In this document: positions 15,597-38,750 of the stretch, in pieces
How the letters are laid out: every line of letters begins with the position of its first letter
Position numbering within the stretch: the stretch's first letter is position 1
DNA from: a virus
DNA: 64,000 nt
IMG/VR virus record: IMGVR_UViG_3300045988_161245
Location: 64,001 to 128,000 of that record
Strand: one strand, 5' to 3'
Program-made: the position numbers and the translations under genes
The notes under the pieces: model-generated
The model's database searches: none
Told to the model about the DNA's origin: nothing
Seen by the model: only the letters and a program-made list of their open reading frames with translations

Positions 15597-15670
15597 CGCA
15601 GGATAGAGAAGTTTGGTATCTCGTCAGATTCATGCTCTGAAGATCGACAGTTCAAATCTGTCTCCTGCAA
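15597..15670 (+). tRNA. tRNA-Met (CAT) with initiator-type identity features
   Basis: Hand-folded cloverleaf. C1xA72 mismatch, A11:U24 pair, discriminator A73 and T-loop UUCAAAU. Close architectural match to E. coli tRNA-fMet, but it lacks the three G:C pairs of the anticodon stem. Confidence 0.85.
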
Positions 15671-22203: not shown

Positions 22204-22292
22204 GCAGGTATAGCTTAATTGGTAAAGCGTCATATTCAAATTCTGGAAAACATACAAATGAAGACTCCAGGTTCGAGTCCTGGTGCACTGCC
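22204..22292 (+). tRNA. aberrant tRNA-like element (canonical D and T arms, oversized anticodon region, bulged acceptor stem)
   Basis: Hand fold. U8-A9, D stem GCUU/AAGC with a GG loop, T arm CCAGG-UUCGAGU-CCUGG. Acceptor GCAGGUA / UGC[A]CUGC. The anticodon stem UCAU/AUGA closes a loop of about 22 nt containing UUCAAA. Confidence 0.45.
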
Positions 22293-22329: not shown

Positions 22330-22411
22330 GGATGGATAGCGAAGTGGTTAAACGCTCCTGACTGTAAATCAGGCGGCTCTGCCTTCGAAGGTTCGAATCC
22401 TTCTCCATCCA
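22330..22411 (+). tRNA. tRNA-Tyr (GTA), class II with long variable arm
   Basis: Hand-folded. GGAUGGA acceptor, UAGCGAAGUGGUUAAACGC D arm typical of bacterial tRNA-Tyr, and anticodon loop CUGUAAA. Confidence 0.9.
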
Positions 22412-22509
22412 CTAAATAGGACTACTGTCCTATTCTATTATTCTTCTCTTTTCTTTGTATTTTTCATTTTCATGATTATTTCTCCAAGCTGGGCTTCGGT
22501 CCAGCGTCT

Positions 22510-22583
22510 TGGGATGTAGCTCAGTTTGGTAGAGCGCCTGATTTGGGGTCAGGAGGTCCAGGGTTCAAGTCCCTGTATTCCAA
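22510..22583 (+). tRNA. tRNA-Pro (TGG)
   Basis: Hand-folded. D arm GCUC-AGUUUGGUA-GAGC, anticodon loop UUUGGGG, T arm CAGGG-UUCAAGU-CCCUG. Confidence 0.9.
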
Positions 22584-22589
22584 CTTTCC

Positions 22590-35293: not shown

Positions 35294-35315
35294 ATGAATG
35301 AAAGGAAAAATAACT

Positions 35316-35978
35316 ATGAAAGTTTTTGAGCTTGCAAAAGAAATTGGTGTACCAAGTTCAGATGTTGTAGCGCTATTAAAGGAAAACGAAGTTCCTGTGA
35401 AAAATCATATGACTCCACTTTCTGATGAAGCAATTGAAATGGTAAGAGCCAATTATATTACGGTTCCGGACGAACCTGAAAAAGTAGAGGTAAAAGAACC
35501 TAAAAAAGTAGTAAAAACAGACGCAGATTACAGACCAGAGGAAATGATTCCATGTAGGTCACTTTTTGCCGGCGTACTCTTGTTTACAGGTGATCATACA
35601 CACATGACATATGCGTTTAATGGTGCTGGTGACAGACGAAATATTGAATATCAGGATTTAAAAGCTGCAATGCTTCAACATAAAGGCTCTATATTTGATC
35701 CAGATATTATTATCGAGGATGAAAATCTTATCAATGACGAGCACTGGTTTGAAGTAAAGGAAGTTTATGAAAATATGTTTAACGAAAAAGATATTGAGAA
35801 AGTAATGAACCTTCCATATCGTGATTTTGAAAAAGCATTTATTCAGCTTCCAATTACAGCAAAAAACAGAATTATTACTACTTACGCTACACAGATGGAA
35901 AACGGTACATTTGAACAGTGGAACAAAGCGAAAATCATTGACAAGGTTTGTGGTACTCGTTTTGATCTGAAAATGTAA
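35316..35978 (+). CDS. protein with an IF2_N-like N-terminal domain
   Basis: KVFELAKEIGVPSSDVVALLKENEVPVKNHMTPLSDEA closely follows the IF-2 N-terminal motif (rVyELAKElgv.sk.ll..L...G..vk.h.s.l.e.). Confidence 0.5.
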   Translation: MKVFELAKEIGVPSSDVVALLKENEVPVKNHMTPLSDEAIEMVRANYITVPDEPEKVEVKEPKKVVKTDADYRPEEMIPCRSLFAGVLLFTGDHTHMTYAFNGAGDRRNIEYQDLKAAMLQHKGSIFDPDIIIEDENLINDEHWFEVKEVYENMFNEKDIEKVMNLPYRDFEKAFIQLPITAKNRIITTYATQMENGTFEQWNKAKIIDKVCGTRFDLKM

Positions 35979-36456: not shown

Positions 36457-36785
36457 CGAAACACCGTTACGGAAAATTCAGTGATATGCAAATGTCGGAA
36501 ATTAAGAAGACATTACGAGGTTCTATTTTTTTCTTATTACAATGTGCAGATCCTAATACTTCAAGTAAATACCCAGGTAAAGACGTAAATGAAATATTTC
36601 AGAATATTCAGTATGATTTAGATGGATTGAACAGCTTACTCTTCTACCCTGTCGAGTTAGTTCCTGTGATTGAATTATTGGAAGCTGCCAGAGTTACATA
36701 CAATAAGCCGGATTCTAAATTTGAGGATTATAGAAAACTCATTTTGGATGCCGGTGTTGCAGTGCTTAAAATAAAGGAGGATTGA
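36453..36785 (+). CDS. putative head-tail adaptor/closure protein
   Basis: 110-aa ORF overlapping its neighbours by 4 nt. Confidence 0.4.
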   Translation: MTKHRYGKFSDMQMSEIKKTLRGSIFFLLQCADPNTSSKYPGKDVNEIFQNIQYDLDGLNSLLFYPVELVPVIELLEAARVTYNKPDSKFEDYRKLILDAGVAVLKIKED

Positions 36786-38750
36786 TTATGCCTACCTTTA
36801 GAGAAATGCAACAATTATACGCGAATATTGGAACAGTTGGTCAGCAGATTAAAAAACAATCTGATGATGCTATGGAAGCAACATGGGATAATTCTATCGC
36901 ATCAAGGGTTTGTTATATCTATGATTATTATCATGATGACTCTCCTACTTTGAATAGAAATATTACCTATGGACCACATACAACCAAAACTCGCATTGAT
37001 GCAAAATTTATTGTCAAATCTTATAGCTCACTGGATAAAGACCAGGTTGAGTATTATCTACAATTTAAACCAAGTCAGAAGACACAATTCGAACCAACTG
37101 ATGAACTCTATTATTTTGAAACAGATTACAGACGAAAATACGGATCAGACGATTTTGTAGGATTATATATTGATATAGCCGATGATCAAGGTATTTATCA
37201 TAGATGGCTTATCTGTACAAAAGAAATAGGCAATCAGTTTGTTAAATATAATATTCTTCCATGTGATTATTGGTTTCATTTTATTGTAAAGAAAAACGGT
37301 AAACGGTATAAACGGAAAATTTGGGGAGTAACGAGGACACAATCCTCGTACAACAGCGGATCTGTTACATGGTCCTTCCCATTAGAAATAAGGGGAAATC
37401 ATCCTTTGAATTGCTGGAAATTCCTAAAGACAATTAAACTACAACGCAAGTATGAAATATAACTAACCGTGAATGTGGCGAAAGCAGAAAAAATTAATTG
37501 TATGAGAACGAGGTTAAAACCCCTGTTCTCTTTTTTAATGGAAAATCAGCAGCGAAGCCTCGAATAGAGGAACGTTCAACGACTAAGCTACCTAAGTAGG
37601 TACTGTGGAGGACATCCGAAAGGATGAAGATATAGTCTGAACTTCTTTCGAAAGAAAGAGAAAACCGAAAGGTCTTATTTGAATTAACGAATCAAATAAG
37701 TAACGCATTTGTATGGACTGATAAGTAATTGTCCACTGCATTTGGAAACTATGCAGTGAATTTCTTCTAATTGCTGGAAACTCTTTAGAAATTTGTAAAC
37801 TACAACGCAAGCATGAAAAATGGCTAATCGTGAATGTTAAAAATTACAAATATTAGATAATCAGCAGCCAAGACTCGAATAGAGTAAGGTTCATCGACTA
37901 TTATGTAGGACAAGTGTCCGAAATGGAGAACACCTAAACCACAAGGCATGGTGAAGATATAGTCAGCACTTCATATGAGAATATGAGAAAAGCATTCGTG
38001 CTCTTTTGCAGCTTAACGAACTGTAAAAGTAACATAAGGTATTACTCTACTTCCACTGAGAACCAGTTTAAGGCAATCGTTCCGTTGAATCCAATTACTG
38101 AAGACATTTACTATGTAGAAGAAGACAATAAAAATATGCGTATAATTATTTCTGCACCTGTAGAAAAACCAAATGTATTCCAGGTAAGTAAAGTTGAAAC
38201 AGCTCCACTATTTGGACTGAAGAGACTTACTTTTGCACAGGATAAATTTGATCCTTATACAGATGGTAGAGATGATGTTGAAATTGCCAAAGGCGACATT
38301 TTTGCTATGTATGCAGATTTGTTTGATAATGAAGTACCTACTGATACTCCATTCCATACAGATACTGAGATAAAAATGGATACTATTCATTGTGATTTAT
38401 CATGCAATGCTAATAAGATTAAGATTGGCGGTAGTTATAAGTTAATTACTGCAAAATTCTTTAATATACAGGGAAGTGAAATTACAGATGAATTTATTCC
38501 ATATTTAGCAAAAAGCAGCTGGTCATGTTATGTAAAAAATAACAGACATGAAGATCCAGATGAAATCGAAGTCACGGATAATACTGATTTAATCACCTGG
38601 TTAGAGCAAAAAGAAAGCAACAAAATTAAAATTAAAATAGCAGACAATAAAGAGTATTTAACGAAAATTCTTGTAATTAAATGCTCTATAAATAAAGATG
38701 GAAGAAATATTGTTGGAGAGATTCAACTTCAAATTTCATCCGTATTATAA
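36782..38750 (+). CDS. structural (neck or tail-completion region) gene apparently split by two tandem group I-like introns
   Basis: ORFs 36782..37462 and 37983..38750 flank two roughly 300-340-nt repeats that carry group I core words. The ORF ends lying inside the repeats are conserved at the nucleotide level but not in frame. Exon limits are approximate (about 36782-37370, a possible micro-exon about 37712-37732, and about 38040-38750). Confidence 0.45.
37367..37711 (+). mobile_element. ORF-less group I-like intron A (boundaries approximate)
   Basis: Candidate P7 pairing GACTA (37581-85) / TAGTC (37633-37) within AAGATATAGTCTGAAC, the J8/7-P7 consensus known from Tetrahymena and T4 introns. 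Several hairpins. Confidence 0.5.
37733..38039 (+). mobile_element. ORF-less group I-like intron B, a diverged tandem copy of A (boundaries approximate)
   Basis: Shares aattgctggaaa, aaactacaacgcaag, aatcagcagc, cgacta and gaagatatagtc blocks with copy A. GACTA 37896-900 / TAGTC 37960-64. Confidence 0.5.

Follow-up and report, generated by a model that had tools for sequence, protein, structure and literature searches.

Why should a phage gene whose product is conserved as one long chain be annotated as two separate open reading frames (ORFs), with noncoding sequence between them? This question is raised by a locus in IMG/VR virus record IMGVR_UViG_3300045988_161245, of which we analysed positions 64,001 to 128,000 (hereafter the window, 64 kb from a human-gut phage of ~210 kb; all coordinates refer to it, and '+' is the strand shown). 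An earlier note, made from the letters alone, had proposed that two tandem, diverged, ORF-less introns of the group I kind occupy 37367-38039 inside one structural gene and may flank a micro-exon of about 21 nucleotides (nt). We now put the probability at roughly 0.88 that this gene contains two independent group I introns of the IA type, both ORF-less, which lie 11 nt apart and are predicted from sequence to be self-splicing, and that, as modelling of the product suggests, it encodes a virion head-completion or neck-type protein.

Two group I introns in tandem

The starting observation is a set of four blocks of 12, 15, 10 and 12 nt (AATTGCTGGAAA, AAACTACAACGCAAG, AATCAGCAGC and GAAGATATAGTC), each of which has exactly two copies in the window, always on the + strand, one per unit and in identical order. 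These exact counts bear out the ordered tandem blocks on which the earlier note had rested its case. Two further blocks, CGACTA and AAGTAAC, are present in both units but occur 7 and 12 times on the + strand window-wide, and thus are too short to be diagnostic alone. In a global alignment, the two units are identical at 217 of 344 positions.

When the Rfam search proposed in the earlier note was run with family RF00028 (group I intron), it produced two tandem, full-length model alignments, at 37354-37660 (82.2 bits, E 2e-19) and 37700-37987 (72.5 bits, E 2e-16), both of which exceed the curated gathering threshold of 50 bits. A permissive Rfam rescan of the 64-kb window gave no further group I introns, even at E <= 0.01. 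The earlier note had taken GACTA...AAGAUAUAGUC for the consensus of helix P7 and joining segment J8/7, and precisely this assignment (GACUA...GAUAUAGUC) is seen in the Rfam alignments of both units, where J8/7 AAGAUAUAGUC and the AAA of J4/5 agree with the RF00028 consensus. With scores above the curated threshold, core helices that all pair, and covariation well above controls (described below), the identification of two group I introns stands. The pair is not a twintron, as each intron has a complete P1-P9.2 and its own splice sites, and the 11 coding nt that separate them are also present in intron-less homologs.

The description of both introns as ORF-less holds as well. The longest ORFs lying wholly inside the introns on the + strand encode 32-33 amino acids (aa), and a 72-aa minus-strand ORF finds as its best Pfam match DUF4390, at E 0.053 and 13.4 bits versus a cut-off of 27, which is not significant. 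Neither intron in the window contains a homing endonuclease ORF.

Splice junctions and the gene model

Which gene is interrupted, and exactly where? With the flanking ORFs joined as query, ~980 homologs were found, nearly all of them single proteins of 410-430 aa that span both halves; three 255-aa matches correspond to the C-terminal ORF that is predicted in intron-bearing relatives. Thus, homologs in the form of two independent genes, which the earlier note had named as the outcome that would overturn its proposal of one interrupted gene, were not encountered. Gene callers split the gene into 224/226-aa and 255-aa ORFs in every public copy, and the 255-aa cluster contains 428 sequences.

All exons and introns of our model lie on the + strand. 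Exon 1 (36788-37361, 574 nt) starts with the ATG at 36788 (MPTFREMQQL...), consistent with a homolog alignment that begins at MPTF, and ends ...AGC GGA U, with the first base of a Leu codon. Intron 1 (37362-37711, 350 nt) is followed by the micro-exon UAUGGACUGAU (37712-37722, 11 nt, UA UGG ACU GAU), which finishes this Leu codon (U+UA) and then codes for Trp-Thr-Asp. Intron 2 (37723-38039, 317 nt) precedes exon 3 (38040-38750, 711 nt including the stop codon), which resumes in phase 0 with UAU UAC UCU. Ligation in silico, predicted to give the RNA AGCGGAU-UAUGGACUGAU-UAUUACUC and, at the DNA level, the fully spliced junction AACAGCGGAT/TATGGACTGAT/TATTACTCTAC, restores the conserved frame exactly and yields a 431-aa protein that reads ...SSYNSG-LWTD-YYSTSTE... 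(...TRTQSSYNSGLWTDYYSTSTENQ... in translation). Across the junction, homologs conform to SSYNSG-[LIV]W[TR]D-Y..T..ENQ without variation in length. The alignment to uninterrupted homologs suggested in the earlier note shows that the spliced model is collinear with the intron-less alleles L020 and L005. With L005 and its protein P0001 (75% identical), the agreement is codon for codon and gap-free in both DNA and protein, and the spliced product ...YNSGLWTDYYSTSTE... equals the uninterrupted sequence across the junction.

The boundaries of intron 2 are unambiguous. Intron-less alleles read ...GAT/TAT TAC... (here and below, a slash within a sequence marks a junction), the insert begins with A and finishes with G, and an allele with intron 2 only (L028) has the same boundaries. 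For intron 1, nearby substitutions permit three partitions, and we chose U37361/...G37711 because it is the sole one that places U before the 5' splice site and G at the intron end. Homolog alignment pointed to TA TGG ACT GAT, situated between the two Rfam matches, as the coding segment, and this sequence is identical in 8/8 distinct twin-intron copies collected. A terminal G at 37705 with a 14-nt micro-exon (37706-37719) was considered and rejected: it gave ...SGSFVWT-YY..., which relative to homologs carries a two-residue insertion and lacks one residue, and G37705 is A in several copies while G37711 is invariant across all.

These junctions move the start of the element from 37367 to 37362 and leave its end at 38039 exactly as the earlier note had it. 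The micro-exon postulated there exists and does start at 37712, but its length is 11 nt rather than ~21 nt, and 37723-37732, previously counted as exon, is the intron-2 half of a P1 helix. The claim that the two ORF ends are intron sequence applies to 37362-37462 and 37983-38039.

A head-completion protein as the likely host

The interrupted gene had been called structural, and this view is supported by synteny and fold, with no curated family. In related contigs, it is flanked by a gene of capsid type (precomputed Pfam YonB) and a tail-tube gene (precomputed Pfam YomU_Tube). An AlphaFold model of P0001 (mean predicted local distance difference test score 81) resembles 'head closure knob' proteins, which are the best non-trivial matches in BFVD, a collection of predicted viral structures (E 1e-16 to 6.5e-7; template modelling scores 0.4-0.66). 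Searches with the host protein gave only generic immunoglobulin (Ig)-domain matches in the PDB, covering the Ig-like C-terminal part, no family match in Pfam, and a family of unknown function in PHROGs, for exon 1 only. The introns are inserted in the codons of the protein's most conserved peptide, which in the model forms a low-confidence loop (residues 188-196) joining two long beta-strands of one domain.

The top BFVD match, A0A8S5MLN6, is 190 aa long and 54% identical to the N-terminal half alone. This entry is probably the exon-1-only annotation of another intron-interrupted copy of the gene.

Ribozyme architecture

Do the two units have the parts of working ribozymes? Explicit pair lists were written for P1, P2, P3, P4, P5/P5a, P6/P6a, P7, P8, P9, P9.1, P9.2 and P10, and standard pairs are formed by 77 of the 78 listed for intron 1 (P1-P10) and by all 65 for intron 2. 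In intron 1, on the + strand throughout, P1 (37358-62 / 37371-75) pairs GGAU/C with GGUCC and puts U37361·G37372 at the splice site. It is followed by P2 (37376-97), P3 (37402-07 / 37607-12), P4 (37412-17 / 37546-51), the P5/P5a extension (37421-37543), P6/P6a (37552-75), P7 (37579-85 / 37633-38), P8 (37613-26), P9 (37643-60), P9.1 (37664-73), P9.2 (37674-37700) and the terminal G at 37711. Its P10 joins 37368-71 with the micro-exon (UAUG/CAUG, 4 base pairs (bp)).

Intron 2, also on the + strand, begins with a P1 (37720-24 / 37729-33) in which GAU/AA pairs with UUGUC around a GUAA loop, with U37722·G37731 at the splice site, and which stacks on an 8-bp P2 (37734-58). P3 (37762-67 / 37925-30), P4 (37772-77 / 37861-66), P6/P6a (37867-90), P7 (37894-37900 / 37960-65), a P7.1-like hairpin (37908-19), P8 (37931-53), P9 (37970-87), P9.1 (37992-38001) and P9.2 (38003-29) lead to the terminal G at 38039, and P10 (37725-29 / 38041-45) pairs GUAAU with AUUAC of exon 3 over 5 bp. 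Two other versions of the intron 2 P1 were discarded. Rfam's own P1 contains many non-canonical pairs and was replaced by GAUAA/UUGUC, while with a GGAC/GUCC helix cleavage would fall at a C-G pair and the conserved Asp would be lost, and intron-less alleles place the insertion at GAT/TAT.

In both introns, P7 contains the guanosine-binding G-C pair with an adjacent bulged C (G37581-C37637 and C37580 in intron 1, G37896-C37964 and C37895 in intron 2), as judged by their sequence match to the consensus aAGACUA...UAGUC. GNRA loops cap several helices in each. The U·G wobbles fall at junctions that were derived independently from intron-less alleles. The micro-exon performs double duty, with its UAUG used in the P10 of intron 1 and its GAU serving as the exon half of the intron 2 P1. 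An insertion of 21-24 nt between the P7 5' strand and the P3 3' strand in both introns has room for one clear hairpin, an extra element typical of subgroup IA; subgroup IA2, the T4 td and Twort type, has both P7.1 and P7.2 hairpins at this place. The P5 extension is ~45 nt longer in intron 1.

Covariation was assessed in an alignment of 13 distinct copies representing both introns, with P7 entered as a pseudoknot. Standard pairs occupy 93.4% of alignment cells, compared with 40-48% in controls whose partners were slid by 1-3 columns, and 24 pairs are altered on both sides, compared with 0-4 in these controls. None of 500 shuffles reached the observed covariation score, although the structure was derived from one aligned sequence and P2 is misaligned between the two classes. 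In unconstrained folding, the minimum free energy (MFE) of intron 1 is significantly better than that of shuffles (z = -3.7).

A natural allele series

Near-identity DNA searches of phage genomes gave no relative of the host phage, only a 183-nt intron-core match in two Bacillus phages, and the twin-intron pattern had no match in a host and prophage search of bacterial genome representatives. The phage, to which no isolated phage is closely related, is common in human-gut assemblies, as contigs of 210-220 kb, and alleles whose proteins are 87-97% identical exist in four states. One (L020) has no intron. Two (L028 and L103) have intron 2 alone, in a form of 316 nt. A third group (L022-24, L029 and L102, with L108 partial, its 5' part being of this state and its contig ending within the intron) has intron 2 alone in a 1363-nt form that carries an ORF with a double LAGLIDADG motif (Pfam LAGLIDADG_3, E 5.7e-16) and an intron core that scores 50.3 bits in Rfam. 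Both introns are present in the window and in about 25 other loci, which together represent 8 distinct intron 2 sequences. Some 150 homolog loci that are more distant (42-50% identity) show no interruption.

The endonuclease form provides a clue to the origin of the smaller introns. Its ORF stops in the P9.2 loop, and its last codons, TCT TTT GCA GCT TAA, make up the 5' strand and loop of P9.2. These codons are kept in the ORF-less intron 2, and intron 1 has the analogue TCT TAT TTG AAT TAA. Because the ORF-less forms retain these ORF-end codons, both look like deletion derivatives of ORF-bearing ancestors. The protein in question (L022:638-2000) has ~318 aa, carries helix-turn-helix motifs at its N terminus as well as two LAGLIDADG motifs, and is encoded in the P9 region; phages of Staphylococcus, Bacillus and Alicyclobacillus encode homologs, 25-35% identical, that are annotated as 'endonuclease'.

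An allele with intron 1 only had no match among close relatives and was found only in a distant clade of 50-55% identity, whose members (L195-L197) come from Clostridia and Lachnospiraceae metagenome-assembled genomes. There, the only intron of L195, a group I intron of 362 nt (2066-2427), sits exactly at the intron 1 site, with GUCC again in its guide sequence; intron 2 is absent, and the spliced product is a full-length ORF. The Rfam score of this intron, 44 bits, falls short of the threshold of 50, with E 4e-10 on a small search. Two other loci (L196, ~2062-2193, and L197, 2015-2285) have a group I intron 12 nt upstream of the intron 1 site, after TCG T, which in L197 scores 86.3 bits; an ORF of L197 begins at the contig end. 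Therefore, three insertion sites are used within 23 nt of coding sequence, at the window equivalents of 37349/50, 37361/62 and 37722/23.

Exchange between the neighbouring introns is also evident. In one twin-intron lineage (L017, L027 and L109), intron 1 carries the P6/P6a of intron 2 (GCCAAGACTCGAACAGAGTAAGG, equivalent to window 37552-37577), a clear case of ectopic gene conversion over ~30 nt.

We also considered whether an allele might exist in which precise loss had left the codons of the twin-intron allele behind. Nine IMG/VR contigs of 7.7-123 kb (L180-L188) do contain the expected 21-nt junction GGATTATGGACNGATTATTAC, but in each it lies inside an unrelated gene (...PPNGLWTDYYNI..., ...LFPPNGLWTDYYNI...) of one gene family, and we treat its occurrence there as coincidence.

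Co-adaptation, co-conversion and selection

Alleles bearing intron 1 all read GGA U/UA UGG at its insertion site, whereas close alleles without it all read GGC CUN UGG, so that the position before the 5' splice site is C in the latter. Given this codon difference, the U for the wobble, the A for P1 and the A for P10 occur only together with intron 1. Upstream of the junction lies a tract of ~20 nt (37340-37361, +) that reads CAATCCTCGTACAACAGCGG in all intron-bearing alleles and CAGAGTTCTTATAAYTCYGG in intron-less ones (CAA TCC TCG TAC AAC AGC GGA T versus CAG AGT TCT TAT AAY TCY GGY C; window compared with L020:2560-2591 and L005). The two versions differ at ~50% of positions by synonymous changes only, while the 142 nt just upstream are 96% identical; a blastn alignment of exon 1 to the intron-less L020 (95.8% identity) ends 20 nt short of the junction. 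As read from these sequences, the synonymous tract is as expected for co-conversion with an incoming intron.

Both exons are under purifying selection in the twin-intron lineages. Nonsynonymous (pN) and synonymous (pS) differences are 0.014-0.076 versus 0.11-0.52 in exon 1 and 0.011-0.075 versus 0.14-0.58 in exon 3, or a pN/pS of ~0.1 for each, and the low value for exon 3 indicates that the downstream exon is translated and constrained. Over the same lineages the introns diverge by 0-7.6%, compared with 11-58% at synonymous sites, which means either that constraint on them is strong or that they are younger than the gene around them. Divergence of the ORF-bearing intron 2 from the window copy is 15%, whereas its flanking exons differ by only ~4%. 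The histories of intron and exon are therefore decoupled, which indicates horizontal movement.

Alternative explanations

Several observations count against our interpretation of two functional introns in a virion gene. Most of the covariation arises when one intron class is compared with the other, and these amount to two lineages; at least one apparently compensatory change within a class, in P6a of L017, was imported from intron 2 by gene conversion and is not independent. The MFE of intron 2 is not significantly better than that of shuffles (z = -1.2; 9 of 100 fold equally well). The intron 2 P1 has only 3 exon bp and faces a competing 4-bp helix, GGAC (37715-18) with GUCC (37731-34). In L002 (a 4.3-kb contig; 1091-1814), intron 2 ends in GAU instead of AGG, which leaves it without a terminal G or any canonical in-frame splice. 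The GAT, equivalent to window 38037-38039, duplicates the micro-exon end, and this copy may be a defective variant or the result of conversion from an intron-less allele; in all other copies, the intron ends ...AAGG or ...AAAGG and retains the terminal G. Lastly, a local Pfam scan of the window's neighbouring genes did not give the YonB and YomU hits seen in related contigs.

Could the pair have arisen by local tandem duplication of one resident intron that later diverged? The order of blocks is common to both units, GUCC is present in both guide sequences, and the two introns share an unusual 3' end, with a P9.2 loop UUAACGAA, an AAGUAAC tail and a comparable in-frame TAA in the loop. Yet intron 1 is closer to an intron in the portal gene of Bacillus phage vB_BceH_LY2 (152 bits, 74% identity over 253 nt) than to intron 2, which it matches in three short pieces only (63+55+33 bits). 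The best phage-database matches of the two introns form different sets, those of intron 2 being other phage introns, and alleles exist in which only the intron 2 site (L028, L022) or, in the distant clade, only the intron 1 site (L195) is occupied. Because of these kinship scores, differing best matches and single-site alleles, we favour independent insertion and regard duplication as unlikely. The shared 3' motifs, which ectopic gene conversion of the kind seen for P6 in L017 and L027 can explain, may reflect either common ancestry of the lost ORFs or homogenisation. Thus, the earlier description of the units as tandem and diverged is right in that they are related, and does not hold in the sense of local duplication.

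Even where two ribozymes are granted, they might act as one composite intron that is removed whole, by exon skipping or as a 'zombie' tandem twintron, with the 11 nt no more than a pseudo-exon. Skipping has been described in Twort orf142 (23-nt exon) and in Coxiella 23S ribosomal RNA (rRNA; 34 nt) (PMC10136302), a tandem pair in fungal cox3 is spliced as a single unit (PMC12308204), and the UAUU of exon 3 could form 3 of the 4 intron 1 P10 pairs made by the UAUG of the micro-exon. Nevertheless, joining exon 1 directly to exon 3 (AGCGGAT/TATTACTC) shifts the frame and brings a stop after 199 aa (...SGLLLYFH*), purifying selection on exon 3 is strong in twin-intron phages, and the micro-exon codes for the LWTD conserved in all uninterrupted homologs and does not vary among twin-intron copies. 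We consider removal as a single unit very improbable, although exon skipping may occur as a minor by-product. Less credible still is the notion that the introns are dead relics and that the gene works as two polypeptides from the ORFs at 36782-37462 and 37983-38750. The halves are indeed annotated separately, with the 255-aa ORF forming its large cluster, and an ATG is available at 37983. Against this, both introns have kept a catalytic core, splice-site U·G wobbles, P1 and P10 helices and terminal Gs that are intact and fit their exons, and they evolve several-fold more slowly than synonymous sites. The intron-derived ORF tails show no relationship to homologs, distant homologs are all single chains, and in the structural model the insertion point lies in a loop within one domain. 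Two independent introns, each spliced at its own junctions, thus remain our preferred explanation.

Proposed splicing and mobility

The sequences, structures, junctions, alleles and signs of selection described above lead us to propose how the two ribozymes would act, in what order they would splice, and how they spread. Each would fold on the pre-mRNA and follow the standard group I pathway. The 5' splice sites would be chosen through the U·G pair of P1 (GGAU/C with GGUCC for intron 1, GAU/AA with UUGUC for intron 2) and attacked by exogenous guanosine, P10 would align the 3' exons (UAUG with CAUG, and AUUAC with GUAAU), and cleavage after G37711 or G38039 would be followed by exon ligation. 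The full-length protein is encoded only if both introns are removed and the micro-exon is retained, because the predicted products are 226 aa from the unspliced transcript, 198 aa if intron 1 alone is removed and 226 aa if intron 2 alone is removed. Since the micro-exon gives 4 nt to one P10 and 3 nt to the other intron's P1, the two cores are probably unable to engage together, and the introns would probably be removed one after the other. The resemblance of the exon 3 UAUU to the micro-exon UAUG means that the intron 1 P10 can partly form with exon 3, and so some skipping is conceivable.

As to origin, the allele series suggests separate insertions of two related mobile introns into the conserved SSYNSGLWTDY hotspot, with intron 2 a putative deletion derivative of the LAGLIDADG-endonuclease form that still circulates in sister phages. 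As the window introns encode no endonuclease, any mobility must use an enzyme supplied in trans, and both introns can probably still spread by recombination after such cleavage. A more ambitious proposal, which we offer tentatively and consider rather doubtful, is that the 23 nt encoding (S)YNSGLWTD(Y) are a three-site hotspot for intron insertion and that the whole cassette, with its invariant micro-exon, now passes as a unit between diverged gut phages via a LAGLIDADG enzyme that sister phages supply in trans, with splicing that is obligatorily ordered, because 11 nt cannot serve both active sites at once, and with a measurable exon-skipped fraction. If true, exon-skipped transcripts would yield a 199-aa protein consisting of the N-terminal domain, and, among natural systems, this locus would provide the tightest test of whether tandem ribozymes cooperate or interfere.

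Relation to known systems

Elements of this kind are already known. Group I introns interrupt phage genes, including structural genes, with 2-3 introns per gene in some cases, as in Twort and the Bastillevirinae (PMC11878797), and gut jumbo phages contain about 18 introns per genome (PMC12880540). The closest parallel is orf142 of Staphylococcus phage Twort, in which the similar introns I2 and I3 are separated by a 23-nt exon (Landthaler & Shub 1999, summarised in PMC10136302). Both loci have two similar ORF-less phage group I introns in one protein gene with a very short exon between them, both might undergo exon skipping as a side reaction, and some introns of the Twort family and Kayvirus are detectable sequence relatives of those in the window. 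They differ in that the exon here is 11 nt, the gene is another one, splicing is predicted from sequence, the phage is an uncultured gut phage of ~210 kb with an SPbeta-like structural module, and a natural allele series (no intron, one, one plus an endonuclease gene, two) is available.

Other closely spaced pairs, in Coxiella 23S rRNA (34-nt exon; PMC10136302) and fungal cob-201 (possibly 18 nt; PMC12308204), have been discussed in these two papers with regard to independent versus joint splicing. Unlike the present pair, they reside in rRNA or organellar genes; both modules of the fungal case encode LAGLIDADG proteins, and its 18 nt are ambiguous as an exon, whereas the 11 nt here are unambiguously coding. 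The trans-homing of T4 mobE/I-TevIII (PMC2790892) is comparable in that sister phages hold an intron 2 with a LAGLIDADG ORF and that the intron and exon histories are decoupled, although the window introns, unlike LAGLIDADG mobile introns, lack an endonuclease.

Among database sequences, intron 1 is most closely related to the vB_BceH_LY2 intron, which itself scores 85.1 bits in Rfam but interrupts a portal gene and has ORFs annotated as transposase as well as a RAGATH-18 RNA. The annotation of that region (L001, 112.5-114.3 kb) does not recognise the group I intron that divides the portal gene, and the two 'transposase' ORFs together with the RAGATH-18 RNA (70.9 bits) resemble an IStron-like composite element. 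Introns surveyed in the Bastillevirinae reside mostly in DNA polymerase and terminase genes and have a mean length of 802 nt (PMC11878797); both window introns are small (317-350 nt).

What distinguishes the present locus is its 11-nt exon, its three-site hotspot and its complete natural allele series, and we make no claim that the exon is the shortest. The corrected gene model holds for an entire clade of human-gut phages of ~210-220 kb, in which an 11-nt micro-exon is invisible to ORF-based tools. Among natural tandem group I introns, an 11-nt exon shared by the P10 of one ribozyme and the P1 of the next is an extreme; it is roughly half as long as the Twort exon that motivated engineered tandem-intron systems. 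Furthermore, the allele states, the two further occupied sites in distant clades, the synonymous tract and the gene conversion provide an unusually complete snapshot of how mobile introns invade, lose their endonuclease and spread in wild phage populations.

Other observations in the window

ARAGORN and Rfam identify transfer RNA (tRNA) genes for Met (CAT), Tyr (GTA) and Pro (TGG) in the window, at 15597-15670, 22330-22412 and 22510-22584; a fourth, at 22204-22287, is a weak Rfam match (36.5 bits) not called by ARAGORN. Between the capsid and connector-like genes, at 35298-35978, a 226-aa protein is encoded that has an N-terminal IF2_N domain (Pfam E 1.3e-9), which is unusual in a virion module.

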